The notes beneath the pieces were generated by a model. The model was not told the DNA's origin. It did no database searches and saw only the letters and a list, made by a program, of their open reading frames with translations. DNA of 64,000 nucleotides from Thermoprotei archaeon (GTDB lineage Archaea; Thermoproteota; Thermoprotei; Gearchaeales; WAQG01), in the NCBI GenBank assembly GCA_049976445.1, contig JBMFIF010000001.1:24634-88633 (forward strand). The letters are read 5' to 3'. Shown here in pieces: positions 3,827-30,200 of the stretch. Made by a program: the position numbers and the translations under genes. Every line of letters starts with the position of its first letter. The first letter of the stretch is position 1.

Positions 3827-3845
3827 TTCTTCTATATTATTAAGG

Positions 3846-3938
3846 GGGCCGTAGTCTAGTTTGGTCTAGGAAGTTTAAAAAACCTAGAGTACCAGGCTCG
3901 GGCCCTGGAGATCGCCGGTTCAAATCCGGCCGGCCCCA
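3846..3938 (+). tRNA. tRNA-Pro (anticodon CGG) with an ~18-nt non-canonical intron in the D-stem 3' strand
   Basis: Acceptor is GGGGCCG/CGGCCCC plus discriminator A, followed by U8. D-arm is GUCU-AGUUUGGUCUA-GGAU once the intron AGUUUAAAAAACCUAGAG is removed. Anticodon arm is CCAGG-CUCGGGC-CCUGG (CGG). Variable loop is AGAUC and the T-arm is GCCGG-UUCAAAU-CCGGC. The intron forms a CUAGG...CCUAG hairpin across the junction. No CCA is encoded. Confidence 0.75.
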
Positions 3939-4031
3939 CTATATTAATGGTCGTCAGCAGCTCAATTAATCTAATTAAGAACAGGTTTCTCTAAGTAGTA
4001 GGACTTATATATTTTTTAAACGATAAATAAC

Positions 4032-5944: not shown

Positions 5945-6255
5945 CCCCCGAATTTATTCATAGAGATGAAGGACTCTAAAAACTATTATGAGAGGATCCC
6001 TCCACCTCCAGGTCTGCGCCCGGTAAGATTTTCCCTCGCTAATGCCCACAGAGCTTAAGCCTAATACTGGGCGTGGCATTGAGTAGTTCCGGCCGCAGGA
6101 GTCCATACTAAGGAGACATACATACGTGCTTCTAAGCTCTGTGGGCATAACCTAGTGAGCTGTTTTTGGCTCCTGGTTGTAGCTAGTCGGCCTTTGCATC
6201 GATACCATTATCCTAAGCTTTCGACTGAAGTCAGGAGCGTCTGACTTGTTTAGGA
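5945..6255. ncRNA. GC-rich (~50% GC) structured non-coding island of unknown identity; candidate stable RNA (RNase P RNA or another ~300-nt RNA); strand unresolved
   Basis: GC content rises sharply against the AT-rich background. A long imperfect helix pairs 6043-6059 (GCCCACAGAGCUUAAG) with 6129-6148 (CUUcUAAGCUCUGUGGGC) and encloses about 70 nt. A perfect 7-bp hairpin AAGUCAG-GAGCGU-CUGACUU lies at about 6228-6248. TATA-like boxes are present on both flanks. The only overlapping ORF (5954-6148) is weak. Confidence 0.35.
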
Positions 6256-6267
6256 ATTTTATAATAG

Positions 6268-6383
6268 TGGGGCCGCGGGGAGTTTCACCCTTTTCAGGGT
6301 TTTGAACCCCGGATCACCAGCGTTCCGGGAATAGGGGTATTCACCCCAGGCTGGCATCCTAATCCAGGCTGAACGACGGCCCC
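6268..6383 (-). tRNA. tRNA-Pro (anticodon GGG) with two introns: a canonical 37/38 intron (21 nt) and a T-loop 59/60 intron (19 nt)
   Basis: The minus-strand RNA reads as follows. Acceptor GGGGCCG, then U8 C9. D-arm GUUC-AGCCUGGAUUA-GGAU, then G26. Anticodon stem CCAGC / loop CUGGGG[UGAAUACCCCUAUUCCCGGAA]C / stem GCUGG. Variable loop UGAUC. T-stem CGGGG, T-loop UUCAAA[ACCCUGAAAAGGGUGAAAC]U, T-stem CCCCG. Acceptor 3' strand CGGCCCC plus discriminator A. After intron removal every arm is canonical. The D-arm and anticodon loop are closely related to the tRNA-Pro(CGG) at 3846. Confidence 0.7.
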
Positions 6384-6483
6384 GACTAAATTATTTATCT
6401 CGTAATAGTATTTAACTTTTATTGAGATTTACCTAAGATAGGTCAAGTTTTTAGCAATTCATAATATAAAAAATTAAAGATTT

Positions 6484-8485: not shown

Positions 8486-9694
8486 CTATATCATATCAAT
8501 ACTAGTTCCAAATACTTGTCTTAATAGGCTTCTGATAACTGTTATTCTTTGTATGTCATTTGCTCCTTCATAAATTGTTGTTATTAGAGCATCTCTTAAG
8601 TATCTTTCAACTCCTGCTTCTTGATCAACACCAACTCCGCCATGGATTTTTATTGCCAATGCTGAAGCTTTTTCTGCTACTTCAGTAGCATACATTTTAG
8701 CTAGTGAAGCTGCCATTATGGCTTCAGGTCGTTGCGCGTCTGTTAATGTGGCTGCCCAGTAAGTAAGCATGCGAACTGCCTCAAGTTCTGTTAACATGTC
8801 TGCTAGTTTAAAAGCTATTCCCTCGAATGAGATTATTGGTCTTTCGAATGCATATCGTTGTAACGCATAGTTTAGTGATTTCTCAAATACCGCTTGTGCG
8901 ATACCTACACCTTGAGCAGCAATGCCAATCCTTCCATGATCATATGTTGTAACAGCAACTTTGAATCCTTCTCCTTCCTTACCTAGAACGTTTTCCTCAG
9001 GTACTTTTACATCATCAAGTATTACTTCGTTAGGTTGCTCACCTTTTAGTCCTATTACATTGAATTTTGACCCAATTTTTACACCTGGCCAATCAGCTTC
9101 TATTATGAAGAATGTTAATCCCTTCCATCTTTCTTTTCTGCTTGGTGGTGGACTTGTTCTTGCTGAAACTACTAAATATTTAGCTCTGTCTGCGCCTGTT
9201 ATGAAGATTTTTCTACCATTGATTATCCAGTAGTTTCCCTCTTTTTTAGCTGTAGCTTGTATACCTGCAACATCACTACCTGCGGCAGGTTCTGTATTTG
9301 CATGGGCCGCAAAAACTTCACCTCTGGCAATTGGTGGTATATACTTCTTTTTTTGTTCTTCAGTACCAAAAATGAGCACTGGCATTGTAAATAAGTGGTT
9401 TACCGCGATTTTTGTTGCAAATGCTGGTGAAATTCTTGAAAGTTCTTCCATAAGTATGACAAGCATCATTGCACCTCCACCTTGTCCATCGTATTCTGGT
9501 GGAATTCCGACACCCATTAGTCCCAATTCTTTTGCTCTGTTGATAAGTTCTTCTGGTATTGTATTTGTTTTTTCTATTTCCATAACTTTTGGAGCTATTT
9601 CATTTTCAGCGAATTGTCTTATCATTTTTCTGAACATTTCATGTTCGTTTGTTAGTTCTACTTTAAAGTCTAAGATATTATTAAAGGGGAACAA
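8486..9694 (-). CDS. Acyl-CoA dehydrogenase
   Basis: Full-length ACAD fold with a C-terminal catalytic-base region (YEGANDIQR); 402 aa. Confidence 0.85.
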   Translation of the reverse strand: MFPFNNILDFKVELTNEHEMFRKMIRQFAENEIAPKVMEIEKTNTIPEELINRAKELGLMGVGIPPEYDGQGGGAMMLVILMEELSRISPAFATKIAVNHLFTMPVLIFGTEEQKKKYIPPIARGEVFAAHANTEPAAGSDVAGIQATAKKEGNYWIINGRKIFITGADRAKYLVVSARTSPPPSRKERWKGLTFFIIEADWPGVKIGSKFNVIGLKGEQPNEVILDDVKVPEENVLGKEGEGFKVAVTTYDHGRIGIAAQGVGIAQAVFEKSLNYALQRYAFERPIISFEGIAFKLADMLTELEAVRMLTYWAATLTDAQRPEAIMAASLAKMYATEVAEKASALAIKIHGGVGVDQEAGVERYLRDALITTIYEGANDIQRITVIRSLLRQVFGTSIDMI

Positions 9695-9747
9695 ATATTA
9701 TCTCCTCCACATAAATACTTGTCTATACATGTTTAAAAACTATTCGT

Positions 9748-9808
9748 TTACTGGTTCGAGACTGTCCACTTATTATGTGATAGTGATGTTGTGGTTGATA
9801 GCTTATCT
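9748..9808. mobile_element. 61-bp MITE-like element, copy 1: 11-bp terminal inverted repeats GAGACTGTCCA/TGGACAGTCTC, flanked by 8-bp direct repeats ACTGGTTC
   Basis: The element has perfect 11-bp TIRs and a conserved core (cttattatgt...gatgttgtggttgat). It is flanked by an exact 8-bp duplication at 9740-9747 and 9809-9816. A second, ~88% identical copy with its own 8-bp duplication lies at 28671-28731. Confidence 0.6.
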
Positions 9809-10387
9809 GGACAGTCTCACTGGTTCTAATTCGTAAGTTAAATATCCCTCAGGTTCACGTTTTGTTACTACAACTCTAACTTTCATTCCTACTCTTAATT
9901 TTTTAGGGTCGGTCTCTCGTACCCATGCTGTAATGTTAATTCCTTCTTTTAGCCTAGCTATACCTACTGTATAATCATCGTAGTGTGAAAAGCTGTTTGG
10001 TTTTACGTTTATTATTGTGTAAGTGAGTAGTTCTCCTTCATTACTTAATTCAACCCATTCTACGTCTGATTTTCTGCATTTGGGACAATCAATCTGTGGC
10101 GGAAAATAGAGTGCCCCGCATTGTTTACATTTTGTTGCATAAAGTTTTCCATCCATTAATCCATCGAAGAATTTTCTGATTTTATCAACGCTTATTACAT
10201 ATTTTAATGTTAATTCTCGTTGGTCAATCCATTGTGCAGCTCCGCTTTTCATGTCTGGCACAACTGGTAATCCCGTTGATTTCTTTATACTTTCAACAAA
10301 TTCGTTAAACTGTTTTGTTGCTTCTTCGGTCTGTTCCTTCTGCGTTTTCTTTTTTTCAACTTTCTGCTGAGTGCTCATGATATTCAC
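9803..10387 (-). CDS. DUF35 Zn-ribbon/OB-fold protein (thiolase partner) with extended N-terminus; last codons supplied by the MITE-like element
   Basis: The Zn-ribbon CKQCGALYFPPQIDCPKCR is followed by an OB-fold. The gene overlaps the downstream thiolase by 4 nt. The terminal codons (V)RLSR* are encoded by the right arm of the 61-bp element. Confidence 0.75.
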   Translation of the reverse strand: MNIMSTQQKVEKKKTQKEQTEEATKQFNEFVESIKKSTGLPVVPDMKSGAAQWIDQRELTLKYVISVDKIRKFFDGLMDGKLYATKCKQCGALYFPPQIDCPKCRKSDVEWVELSNEGELLTYTIINVKPNSFSHYDDYTVGIARLKEGINITAWVRETDPKKLRVGMKVRVVVTKREPEGYLTYELEPVRLSR

Positions 10388-11756: not shown

Positions 11757-12104
11757 ATGGTGTTGAACATGTCTGAAGATATCAAATCTTTAATACAAAC
11801 AGTCTATGAAAAAGCTAAATTAAAGATGGGGAGTGAAATGGCGGGTTGGAATAAAGTGTTTCAGTTTAATATAGAAGGTGGAGAACCATTTTATATAGAG
11901 TTTAAGCAGGGGAATGTGAATGTTGTTCCGGGTTCTCACAAATCTCCTACAGCAACACTTATTATGAGCAAAGAAACTCTTATTAAAATATTGAAAGGTG
12001 AATTAGATTCTATGGCGGCATTCATTAGAGGTCAAATGAAAATTACAGGAAACGTGATAGAGACTACATCGTTAAGAAAAATGATAGAAGCCGCAAAATC
12101 ATAA
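11757..12104 (+). CDS. SCP2 sterol-carrier/lipid-transfer domain protein
   Basis: 115 aa with a C-terminal SCP2 signature (AAFIRGQMKITGNVIETTSLRKM). Confidence 0.65.
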   Translation: MVLNMSEDIKSLIQTVYEKAKLKMGSEMAGWNKVFQFNIEGGEPFYIEFKQGNVNVVPGSHKSPTATLIMSKETLIKILKGELDSMAAFIRGQMKITGNVIETTSLRKMIEAAKS

Positions 12105-19909: not shown

Positions 19910-21214
19910 TTAACCCCATGCAGGTTTAGGATATAACGGTTGAGCTGACGCTGCTTCTGGAGGCCAAACAGTATATTTTTTTCCATTCTGCCATTGTATT
20001 AAAACCATTTTGTGTGCTATTTGCAGTCCAGTTACAGGATCTATTTTAAACTCACCAAAGAATGTTTTTAAATCAAGAGTATTAAAAGCATCACGCACCT
20101 TCTTAGAATTAAGACTTTGAGCTTTTTCTATTGCAGCTTGAAGTACTAGCCCTGCCATAAAACCACCAGCTGAGTGATAAGTTGGGGTTTCATTAAACAT
20201 CGATTTATACATTTGTATAAAATCTTTAACTGAAGGCCCATAAGTTGCGTTATATTTAACGTCAGGTTCCCATTGAGAAGGCCCAAATATATAATTGGCA
20301 TCAGCACCTAATGATTGATAGAAACTATCTTCTGGTGCAGCAACTATGATTGAAAATAATTTTGCATTGACATTCAATTGTTTTGCTTGTTTTATTAATA
20401 ATACCCCATCAGCGAAGTGCCCACCACCTATTATCGCATCAGGATTTGTGGCTTTTATACTAGTTAATATTGGAGATAGATCAGTGGCAGTTGATGGATA
20501 TTTATCATAAAAAACGACAGTAAATCCGTTCTGTTCTGCATATTTTTTAGCACCTTCAGCTACCGAAGCTGAAAACACATCATCACTATAAACTATTGCA
20601 ATTTTTTTGGCACTGGGATCTTTAGCTTTAATAAGATCAAGCGTTGACCAAAGGTATTCTGAACCTGGAGTATATACTTGGACGACATACTTGTATCCCT
20701 GTTGATGGATGCTATCAGCAGCCGCACCAGTAGTAACTATTACTTTGCTATGCGCTTCAGCTATAGCTGCAGCAGTAAGGGCTAATGGGCTCGAATAAGG
20801 TGATATGAGAAAATCAACATTATCTTGAGTAATTAGCTTTTCATAAAGTGCTGTGACTTGGTCTTTCTTACTTGCATCGTCATAATATATTATTTTTATA
20901 AAGTACCTGGTTCCATTAACGATTATTCCACCAGTTTTATTATTTACCCAATACTGCCATAATTGGATACCATGTAATTGCCTTGTTCCTTCAACAGCAT
21001 ATGAACCAGTTAAAGATGTTGTAAAACCAACTTTAATTATACCTGTTGGCATAGTAGTGGCAGTTGTTGTAGTCGTAACAGTTGTTTTAGTAGTGGTAGT
21101 TGTAACTGCTGCAGGTCCTCCTCCACCAAATAAAGCATACCATGCAGCTATTATTGCAACTATTACTATTATCACTATTATTATTCCGGTTAGACGAGAA
21201 ATAGCACGCTTCAT
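19910..21214 (-). CDS. Branched-chain amino acid ABC transporter substrate-binding protein (LivJ/K-like) with N-terminal membrane anchor and Thr-rich linker
   Basis: A type I periplasmic-binding fold follows a TM anchor and a TTTTTKTTVTTTTTATT linker, as is typical for archaeal solute-binding proteins. Confidence 0.8.
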   Translation of the reverse strand: MKRAISRLTGIIIVIIVIVAIIAAWYALFGGGGPAAVTTTTTKTTVTTTTTATTMPTGIIKVGFTTSLTGSYAVEGTRQLHGIQLWQYWVNNKTGGIIVNGTRYFIKIIYYDDASKKDQVTALYEKLITQDNVDFLISPYSSPLALTAAAIAEAHSKVIVTTGAAADSIHQQGYKYVVQVYTPGSEYLWSTLDLIKAKDPSAKKIAIVYSDDVFSASVAEGAKKYAEQNGFTVVFYDKYPSTATDLSPILTSIKATNPDAIIGGGHFADGVLLIKQAKQLNVNAKLFSIIVAAPEDSFYQSLGADANYIFGPSQWEPDVKYNATYGPSVKDFIQMYKSMFNETPTYHSAGGFMAGLVLQAAIEKAQSLNSKKVRDAFNTLDLKTFFGEFKIDPVTGLQIAHKMVLIQWQNGKKYTVWPPEAASAQPLYPKPAWG

Positions 21215-27696: not shown

Positions 27697-28617
27697 CTAT
27701 ACTTTCATAATGTTTGTTATTAATTTTTCTGATATAACATCTTGATTTCCTGATATTATCAATGAAGCAATGTAATTTCCAAATTGAAGACATAAACCTA
27801 ATGGTAAATTCTTCAAATATGCAGCATAGAAACCTGCTATAAATGCGTCACCTGCACCCTTTACTGATAATACCTTTACTTTGAATGCTTTTTCTTTAAT
27901 TACATTATCCTCAAAAATAGCAAGAGAACCTTTAGAACCAAGCTTTATGACTTTTATAGGAGGCTTCATGCTAGCTAATTTACTAACTGCTTCTTTTATA
28001 CTCTGCGAATTAGTTAATGTTATGTATTCTTCAACATTCCCAAATAAGAACGTTAATTTTTCTAATACACTATTAAGATATTCCTTTTGTATATTTTTTA
28101 TTCTTGGAAACAGATCTAAACCAATTTTAATATTCTTTTTAGACAATACATTAAGTAATGTCATAAATTCATCATAATCAATAAGTTCTAATGCATACCC
28201 TGATACATGAAATATTTTTGGGTTGGTATCCTGTATCTTTTCAATATATTTATTAATTTTTGATCCAATATGATAAATCGCTCTTCGTGCACCACTCTTA
28301 TTAATAATACTTATCACAGTATATACTTCATTGTCATGATGAACAGTTAATAATAAGTTTTCTTTTCCTATCTCGCATTCTACGAAATTTTTTAACAAAT
28401 TACCTACCGGATTATCGCTTAGTGATGAGATAAACATAACAGATAAACCAAGCTTTTTAGCGATCCGTGCAACATTACTTCCTGAACCCCCAAGTGATAT
28501 ATCAACCTTTTTAGCTTCTCTCTGATTACCTAAAATTTCAATGTTTTCAGAATAATACACATCAATATCTAAGCATAAATCTCCTATAACTACTAAATCA
28601 TAATTGAGATCTGCCAT
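27697..28617 (-). CDS. PfkB-family carbohydrate/nucleoside kinase (ribokinase-like)
   Basis: The N-terminal GDLCLDIDVY and C-terminal GAGDAFIAGF motifs are both present. Confidence 0.75.
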   Translation of the reverse strand: MADLNYDLVVIGDLCLDIDVYYSENIEILGNQREAKKVDISLGGSGSNVARIAKKLGLSVMFISSLSDNPVGNLLKNFVECEIGKENLLLTVHHDNEVYTVISIINKSGARRAIYHIGSKINKYIEKIQDTNPKIFHVSGYALELIDYDEFMTLLNVLSKKNIKIGLDLFPRIKNIQKEYLNSVLEKLTFLFGNVEEYITLTNSQSIKEAVSKLASMKPPIKVIKLGSKGSLAIFEDNVIKEKAFKVKVLSVKGAGDAFIAGFYAAYLKNLPLGLCLQFGNYIASLIISGNQDVISEKLITNIMKV

Positions 28618-28670
28618 ATCCTATAGTTAAAGAAAGTTAGTATTTTTAAATATTAATGGATTACTACACA

Positions 28671-28731
28671 GAGACTGTCCACTTATTATGTAGAAATGAT
28701 GTTGTGGTTGATGGCCTATCTGGACAGCCTC
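28671..28731. mobile_element. 61-bp MITE-like element, copy 2 (TIR GAGACTGTCCA / TGGACAGCCTC), flanked by 8-bp direct repeats ACTACACA
   Basis: It is ~88% identical to the copy at 9748-9808. An exact 8-bp duplication is present at 28663-28670 and 28732-28739. The element is inserted about 54 nt upstream of the pfkB-family kinase start, distal to its TATA-like box. Confidence 0.6.
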
Positions 28732-29144
28732 ACTACACACTGAAGTTAAAGTTTTAAGAAAAGTCTGATTATTTTTACTTACTGTAATTATTTTTAATGT
28801 TTTATACCTTATTTGGAAAGTGCTTGTTGCATAATTCGTGCGTGGTTTTGTGGAGCGTTTCGCAGTCTCCTCCAATCTCATAATACTTACCGGTAGGATT
28901 TGATGTATGCTAGTTAGGAGTGTTCATTAAAACTGTGAGAAAACATCATCAAATTCTTAACTCATAAGAATACTCAGCATAGAAAGCACACCAAAAACGC
29001 ATCAGAATTATGCAACAAAGCATTGGAAAGAATACTCTTTTTATTATATGATAAGATTTGAAGTATTATTCCTAATGTTTTATTTGTTTTGTTGTCTTTT
29101 ATTTTTGTTCTGAACATAACGAAAATGTTTTATTTTAGGATTAT

Positions 29145-30200
29145 TTGGTGATATTTATGGTTAGAGTTTCCATAGTTGGCGGTTCGGGATACAATGGAGG
29201 AGAATTATTAAGGATCTTAGCAAATCATTCGAAAGTCGAAGTTACTTATGTGACTTCTAAAGAATATGTTGGGAAACCTATAACTTTCGTACATCCGAAT
29301 TTGAGAGGATTTTATTCTTTAAGGTTTTCAGAGTATAATATAGATAAGCTAACTAATCTATCAGATGTAGTGTTTCTATCTGTACCACATGGCGTCTCAA
29401 TGACTTTAGTTCCGAGTCTTTTAAATGTTGGTTTGCGGGTGATTGATCTTAGTGCTGATTATAGACTTAAAGATCCTGAACTCTATAAGATCTGGTACGG
29501 GATTGAGCATCCACAACCTGATCTCTTAAGTAAGGCCGTTTATGGGCTACCGGAGCTACATTTTGATGAGTTGCAGAATGCTAGTCTGATAGCATCTCCA
29601 GGTTGTAATGCGACCGCTTCTATATTAGCTTTGGCACCTCTTGCAGCTAATGGTTTGGTTTACGGTAATGTCATTGTTGATATAAAGGCTGGTAGTAGTG
29701 AAGGTGGTTCTAAACCTACTGCAGGTAGTCATCATCCAGAGCGTGAGCATGCTATCAGGCCTTACGAAGCAGAGGGACATAGACATGTTGCTGAAATCGA
29801 GCAAGAATTAAATCGAATTTCTAAGAAAATTGGAAAAGTGAGTCTTATTCCTCATGCTGTAAGTAGTGTAAGAGGTGTACTGGCTTCTGCGCATGTTTGG
29901 GTTGAGTCTGTGTTAAGTGATTTAGATTTATTAAAAATTGTTTCAGGATTTTATAAGGACAGGAAGTTTATTCGTATTGTGAGAGGGTTTCCTCAGTATC
30001 CAGATCCAAAGTATGTGATTGGAAGTAACTTTGCTGATATTGGTTTTGCTTTTGAGAAGCGTGTTAATAGGGTTACTATTTTTGCGGCGTTGGATAATCT
30101 AATTAAGGGTGGTGCTGGGCAGGCAGTTCAGGCGTTTAACATATCTATGGGATTTGATGAAGGAGAGGGTCTCATGACACCTCCTTTAAGGCCGGTGTGA
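29145..30200 (+). CDS. lysY: N-acetyl-gamma-glutamyl-phosphate / [LysW]-aminoadipyl-phosphate reductase
   Basis: The N-terminal VSIVGGSGYNGGELLRIL and the catalytic Cys context (SPGCNAT) are present. Confidence 0.85.
   Translation: MVIFMVRVSIVGGSGYNGGELLRILANHSKVEVTYVTSKEYVGKPITFVHPNLRGFYSLRFSEYNIDKLTNLSDVVFLSVPHGVSMTLVPSLLNVGLRVIDLSADYRLKDPELYKIWYGIEHPQPDLLSKAVYGLPELHFDELQNASLIASPGCNATASILALAPLAANGLVYGNVIVDIKAGSSEGGSKPTAGSHHPEREHAIRPYEAEGHRHVAEIEQELNRISKKIGKVSLIPHAVSSVRGVLASAHVWVESVLSDLDLLKIVSGFYKDRKFIRIVRGFPQYPDPKYVIGSNFADIGFAFEKRVNRVTIFAALDNLIKGGAGQAVQAFNISMGFDEGEGLMTPPLRPV

Follow-up and report, generated by a model that had tools for sequence, protein, structure and literature searches.

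What is the short sequence with inverted-repeat ends that lies just upstream of a PfkB-family carbohydrate kinase gene in this DNA, and is it a part of the promoter, a small RNA gene or a mobile element? The locus lies in a 64-kb stretch of DNA (hereafter the window) from an uncultured 'Thermoprotei archaeon' lineage, which has a base composition of 34% G+C and carries a LysW/LysX/LysY/LysZ cluster as part of its gene content. A sequence-only reading had described a MITE-like, promoter-proximal insertion with an 8-bp duplication at this site. When we re-read the coordinates and strings, they were correct (Table 1), and this description has now gained an empty orthologous site and two extra intact copies.

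The 61-bp element and its empty orthologous site

The element upstream of the kinase gene (copy 2 of a family described below) has terminal inverted repeats of 11 bp, which are complementary at 10/11 positions. Re-inspection for the direct repeats, on which the idea of an insertion depends, found a perfect 8-bp ACTACACA on both sides. The element starts 53 nt upstream of the kinase ATG and 20 nt distal to the TTTAAA of a TATA-like box, in agreement with the position given to it earlier, upstream of the kinase start and just distal to that box. Although four of the six frames are open across it, each of them holds merely 19-20 codons, and 61 bp is too short for any transposase. Shuffled sequences gave 0 expected matches for the full 61-bp element.

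Table 1. Coordinates (in the window) of the element, its duplications and the neighbouring features
Feature	Position	Strand	Remarks
61-bp element (probable MITE), copy 2	28671..28731	+	left arm 28671-28681 (GAGACTGTCCA), right arm 28721-28731 (TGGACAGCCTC)
Target-site duplication, left copy, 8-bp ACTACACA	28663..28670		read directly
Target-site duplication, right copy, 8-bp ACTACACA	28732..28739		read directly
Copy 1 with its duplications	9750..9826	+	element 9758-9818, perfect 11-bp arms; 8-bp ACTGGTTC at 9750-9757 and 9819-9826
PfkB-family carbohydrate kinase gene, adjoining the insertion	27697..28617	-	Pfam PF00294, E=1.6e-33; gene order kept in relatives
Putative kinase core promoter	28641..28658	-	TATA-like TTTAAAAATA (28650->28641), BRE-like ATTAAT just upstream; archaeal TATA/BRE consensus
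84-aa ORF, publicly annotated hypothetical protein	28627..28881	-	spans the 61-bp element into MITE-B; no Pfam match
MITE-B, 202 bp, unrelated	28813..29030		element 28821-29022; arms TGCTTGTTGCATAATTC / GAATTATGCAACAAAGCA (ends TGCTTGTTGCATAATTC / TGCTTTGTTGCATAATTC); 8-bp duplication TTGGAAAG at 28813-28820 and 29023-29030

The lysY-kinase gene order is retained around kinase orthologues of 74-85% identity. In one relative (L021, ENA ERZ1669417) the intergenic region between the two genes is 244 bp long versus 527 bp in the window. When the 61-bp element, the second insertion MITE-B and one copy of each duplication are taken out of the window sequence, the 248 nt that are left can be aligned over their full length with the whole L021 region (75% identity), without any large gap; the two MITEs together have roughly doubled the region, from 244-248 bp to 527 bp. 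At the insertion site, L021 reads CTTCAAAATGTAGTAATCC (longer reading CTTCAAAATGTAGTAATCCATTAATATTTAAAA) and has no element, whereas the reverse strand of the window reads CTTCAG-TGTGTAGT-(61 bp)-TGTGTAGT-AATCC (longer right flank AATCCATTAATATTTAAAAA). The duplicated 8-bp sequence is present in L021 as a single, slightly diverged copy at the orthologous site. Copy 2 is a true insertion, and L021 is a textbook empty site. The sequence-only reading had proposed a comparison with the promoter of a relative without the element, and L021 is such a relative: it keeps the intergenic region and the core promoter stretch, without the 61-mer.

L021 is likewise without MITE-B and, at the site of this insertion, carries GTTTCCAA (reverse complement) just once. 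Neither the window nor the fetched loci hold another copy of MITE-B. Inside it is a palindrome, GATTTGATG...CATCAAATTC, with a UGAUGA string on the minus strand, and the right end of MITE-B agrees with the bacterial IS6 consensus GGTTCTGTTGCAAA at 10/14 positions.

The copy 2 locus, element included, is identical in two independent assemblies, a JGI metagenome contig (L001) and an NCBI MAG contig (L002). A third, truncated contig (L003) begins 4 nt before the element's end; its first bases depart from the window, and it is otherwise identical to the window from the element through the kinase start. An end at the repeat is consistent with a multi-copy sequence; repeats of this kind can break contigs, and L003 may be a case of this. 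The copy 1 locus was sought in other assemblies with the acyl-CoA dehydrogenase protein (both possible starts) and was not found, and the empty-site control is that of copy 2 only.

Two side observations concern the same contigs and the same intergenic region. L001 and L002 both end near window 21,145 (~21140-21150), in a low-complexity, Val/Thr-rich coding stretch of ORF 19910-21214 (minus strand), and no repeat or MITE was seen at these ends. In another MAG (L019, GCA_038881895.1) the lysY-kinase intergenic region is about 895 bp long and holds a ~300-bp island at ~9550-9900 with 56-63% G+C, which ends a few nt from the position of the 61-bp insertion in the window. The island shows no similarity to the window, and Rfam had no match for it even at E<=1.

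Copies of the element and readings other than transposition

The window has two copies of the element, copy 1 and copy 2, and no further ones. They are identical at 54/61 positions and differ at positions 22, 23, 24, 26, 43, 46 and 58. The internal patch and the terminal-repeat position at which the two copies had been said to differ are both right, but that list was incomplete, as there are two more internal differences. Copy 1 sits in the last codons of a ChsH2-like ORF (9803-10387, minus strand), where the insertion changes the predicted C-terminus from ...EPVNE to ...EPVRLSR; the new stop codon lies inside the element.

A metagenome collection scanned with the exact left 20-mer returned two contigs only. 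On one of them (L022) the copy is intact, flanked by ACTTTTTT and 58/61 identical to copy 1. Two convergent ORFs have their 3' ends on either side of it; the insertion hit a stop codon there, and the element provides the replacement stop. A fourth intact copy was reached through a protein search: translations of the element's four open frames, run against 5.8 billion predicted proteins, gave one further ORF. This copy (L027; JGI 3300039096, contig Ga0395593_095483, positions 1-947) is 61/61 identical to copy 1, is flanked by CACAAGAA and sits in the leader of a CRISPR array with 13 identical 25-nt repeats (GTATCAGACAAAAATGAACTGAAAG), 58 nt upstream of the first one. The contig comes from the same JGI sample as L001. 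That it belongs to the same genome as the window is not proven, but the full identity with copy 1, in a sample that also holds a contig identical to the window, points to recent movement.

The four intact copies thus occupy unrelated loci (window 9758-9818, window 28671-28731, L022 and L027), and every one of them has a perfect 8-bp flanking duplication, all four of which are different: ACTGGTTC, ACTACACA, ACTTTTTT and CACAAGAA. In the alignment of the four, similarity begins and ends exactly at the ends of the repeat arms, which are perfect over 11 bp in copy 1 and L027 and match at 10/11 positions in copy 2 and L022. In three of the four cases the duplication starts with ACT and follows a TT (TTACT at the left edge), which suggests an oriented target preference, though four sites are too few for certainty.

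The second contig of the metagenome scan (L023, positions 300-390; ENA ERZ1669248, ~2x coverage) holds a rearranged copy, in which positions 61->27 are followed by 18 nt and then by positions 1-26. The halves of the element are separated and one is inverted, and the 9-mer TGTTGAGGG adjoins both element ends in inverted orientation. The arrangement equals an intact insertion followed by a 44-bp inversion, and it may be real or an assembly artefact.

The other scans found little. The exact-pattern scan of 185,579 species-representative genomes gave no copy. The known JGI contig did not come up in the metagenome collection, which is therefore incomplete for the organism. The family looks rare, with a copy number that is poorly bounded by exact-match scans. 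Several candidates were rejected. The both-arm pattern (GAGACTGTCCA N30-60 TGGACAGYCTC) matched genome contigs 12 times, always in unrelated bacterial palindromes and never in an archaeon. In viral contigs the arm-pair pattern had 0 matches, and a 17-mer had three, all without the element's GAG end and right-hand half. One of these three, on the viral contig L018 (IMG/VR UViG_3300044677_000006), extends to a 22-nt exact match to element positions 4-25 at 11921-11942, inside an 87-aa viral ORF, and is probably due to chance.

These copies bear on the idea that the element is a conserved regulatory palindrome common to promoters, for example a transcription-factor operator, and is not mobile. 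Two of the four copies do lie at an equal distance from the TATA-like box of a minus-strand gene, and in the 24 nt on their left, copies 1 and 2 agree at 19/24 positions. We considered these 24 nt as a part of the element and rejected them, as they are present in L021 without the element and absent at L022 and L027; the likeness is one of target DNA that was already there in L021. Moreover, the orthologous promoter of L021 has no such palindrome, each copy is bracketed by a different perfect duplication, and one copy lies between convergent 3' ends and another in a CRISPR leader. An operator is hardly credible on this evidence, and a palindrome shared among promoters without target duplications, which the sequence-only reading had named as the observation that would count against it, is contradicted by the empty site and by the duplications at 4/4 copies.

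A second alternative is that the element is the gene of a small structured RNA, C/D-box-like or a hairpin sRNA, with the inverted repeats as the stem of the RNA. The minus-strand RNA is predicted to fold with an 11-bp terminal stem (z = -3.4 to -4.0), the strings UGAUGU and CUGG are present, and 2/4 copies have a palindromic TTTAAA 20 nt upstream. Archaeal C/D-box sRNAs resemble the element in their length (50-70 nt), short terminal stem and partial box-like strings. However, a predicted hairpin follows automatically from inverted repeats, and the arm substitutions, at position 58 of copy 2 and position 57 of the L022 copy, each affect one side only and are uncompensated. The canonical boxes RUGAUGA (C) and CUGA (D) are absent from both strands of all four copies, so that no copy has both, and the box-like strings are not terminal; a single UGAUGA occurs in the L022 copy only, at position 39 and without the preceding purine. 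Over the whole window Rfam (15) gave no match at gathering scores, and for 28600-29150 a cut-off of E<=10 brought up nothing but noise. As for the nearby TATA box, it was there before the insertion, and the L022 and L027 copies have none beside them. The earlier suggestions of a C/D-box-like small RNA and of a TATA-like string inside the element are not supported: the strings UGAUGU and CUGG exist but are not canonical, the element contains no TATA-like hexamer, and the adjacent one is that of the kinase promoter. The element differs from C/D-box sRNAs in having neither the terminal RUGAUGA/CUGA nor a C'/D' arrangement nor an Rfam match, and it behaves as a transposon and not as a guide RNA. 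We regard a small RNA gene as very improbable.

The small size, terminal inverted repeats, duplication of fixed length and variable sequence, dispersed copies and presence or absence at an orthologous site are those of a MITE. We put the probability at about 85% that the 61-bp element is a non-autonomous MITE, mobilised in trans, presumably by a DDE-type transposase encoded elsewhere in the genome. Such an enzyme would presumably bind both repeat arms and insert the element at a target site opened by cuts 8 bp apart, and repair of this stagger would leave the 8-bp duplication.

Known archaeal MITEs offer a comparison. The Sulfolobus MITEs SM1-SM4 (Redder, She & Garrett 2001, as cited in PMC10969869) and the 142-bp MITE carried by plasmid pTC1 (PMC4390865) resemble the element as short, non-coding sequences of thermoacidophilic Thermoprotei with terminal inverted repeats and target duplications; the likeness would extend to several copies per genome and to mobilisation in trans by a resident IS, and that of pTC1 also shows presence and absence between related replicons. 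By sequence the pTC1 MITE is different: when the element was compared by blastn with plasmid and phage collections, in which Sulfolobales plasmids such as pTC1 are included, nothing but chance matches (E of at least 0.2) came up. SM1-SM4 are set apart by description and not by sequence: SM1 is about 79 bp long, longer than the 61-mer, and the present host is an uncultured lineage and not a Sulfolobus isolate.

A candidate enzyme for mobilisation

IS6-family elements characteristically make 8-bp duplications (PMC7986276, PMC6807381), and this property was found in 4/4 copies. ISSte1, an IS6-family element on plasmid pTC1, has the ends GTGTGTGTCCAACAAT and an 8-bp duplication (PMC4390865), both of which we confirmed in the pTC1 plasmid record. 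Two further Sulfolobales IS6-like copies, retrieved via their transposases, have the ends GAGTGTGTCCAACAAT(TT). The arm GAGACTGTCCA matches GAGTGTGTCCA of these two copies at 9/11 positions in the same register, and ISSte1 at 8/11. In addition, the element shares with the archaeal IS6-like IS (the ISSte1, ISSto2 and ISC735 group) short terminal repeats with G at positions 1 and 7. From this likeness of ends, the mobilising enzyme may belong to the archaeal IS6-like group (ISC735 / ISSte1 / ISSto2), an assignment that we hold tentatively, with slightly more doubt than confidence. If it is correct, the element would move through a cointegrate, resolved by recombination between copies.

The likeness has clear bounds. 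Against the bacterial consensus the element ends match at only 5/11 positions, with G1 and G7 present and G2 absent. Beyond position 11 the likeness to IS6-like ends is weak (12/18 at best), and the interiors of the archaeal IS6-like elements are unrelated to the 61-mer. The comparison of ends covered Sulfolobales IS6-like elements and the bacterial IS6 consensus only. The IS6-family MITEs catalogued in ISfinder, MITEBth2 and MITEHarch3, are 227 and 336 bp long (PMC7986276), four to five times longer than the 61-mer. Harmer & Hall also question whether the archaeal IS6-like group is part of the IS6/IS26 family proper (PMC6807381).

A partner element was sought in several ways. In the window no ORF is enclosed by an IS-like inverted-repeat pair, and there is no candidate transposase; the window, the fetched loci and the viral contigs gave no IS, and no transposase gene, with these arms, and exact-pattern scans of the collections found no cognate IS. 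A protein search with the ISSte1 transposase gave eight relatives, none of them from the host lineage, and an IS6-like profile search of the viral contigs gave nothing. Other DDE families also make 8-bp duplications, and the length of the duplication alone does not identify the family.

The MITE might therefore be moved by another 8-bp-duplicating DDE family (IS256, ISL3, IS4/ISH8 or the ISH1 group of IS5) and not by an IS6-like enzyme. The missing partner, in the window, the viral contigs and the exact-pattern collection scans, fits this alternative, as does a likeness to IS6-like ends confined to 9/11 positions. On the other hand, GAG...TGTCCA is common to three independent Sulfolobales IS6-like elements in the same register, and the chance of such a match is ~1e-4 for a single 11-mer comparison. 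We consider another family quite possible, though we lean against it.

The IS6-like assignment could be carried further, to the smallest known archaeal IS6-like MITE, active now in an uncultured Thermoprotei lineage, with an oriented TTACT preference and a tendency toward promoters, gene ends and the CRISPR leader. In this full form we think it unlikely. If it is true, such an active, promoter- or leader-biased IS6-like MITE could rewire the expression of neighbouring genes or of a CRISPR array.

Consequences for the kinase locus and other features of the window

The centre of the kinase TATA-like box lies about 28 nt before the ATG. Such spacing is expected for a leaderless or near-leaderless archaeal mRNA from the established promoter geometry. 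The promoter role of 28641-28658 is putative and follows the archaeal consensus. The stretch AATCCATTAATATTTAAAA is identical in L021, which is without the element, so the putative TATA/BRE belongs to the kinase promoter and predates the insertion. The duplication starts 5 nt beyond the BRE-like stretch; the insertion has therefore left the core promoter intact and moved everything upstream of it away by 69 bp. If expression is affected, this would be through displaced upstream regulatory sites and not through a promoter or an RNA carried by the element. The window and L021 form a natural with/without pair for asking whether 69 bp upstream of an archaeal BRE/TATA alter promoter output, and the copy in the CRISPR leader is a similar natural experiment on leader function.

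The two insertions also matter for annotation, because together they create an ORF of 84 codons that is entered as a hypothetical protein in public MAG annotations. Its only relatives among the 5.8 billion proteins are itself and one other MITE-crossing ORF. The ORF is most likely an artefact of the two insertions and not a gene.

The 61-bp element is a very short addition to the well-known class of MITEs, and it leaves the current understanding of MITEs unchallenged. With it, the mobile elements of an uncultured thermophilic archaeal lineage gain a very short and apparently recently active MITE family.

Some other features of the window were noted in passing. ARAGORN calls a 95-nt 'tRNA-Phe' with anticodon AAA at window 3845-3939; the anticodon and the length are both unusual, so the call may be false or the tRNA may contain an intron. 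Between PNGase-like and FadB-like genes, window 5950-6400 forms a GC-rich (46-58%) non-coding island. An inverted repeat in it (6032-6158) was considered as a third MITE and rejected, as its stem lies inside the GC-rich, RNA-like region. Window 6023-6245 (minus strand) gives a full-length but sub-threshold Rfam match to HEARO RNA, the IscB omega-RNA family (45.9 bits versus a gathering score of 83, E=3.3e-8), and there is no IscB-like ORF near the island. Finally, window ~6265-6388 (minus strand) looks, from its sequence and predicted fold, like an intron-containing tRNA gene that ARAGORN did not call.
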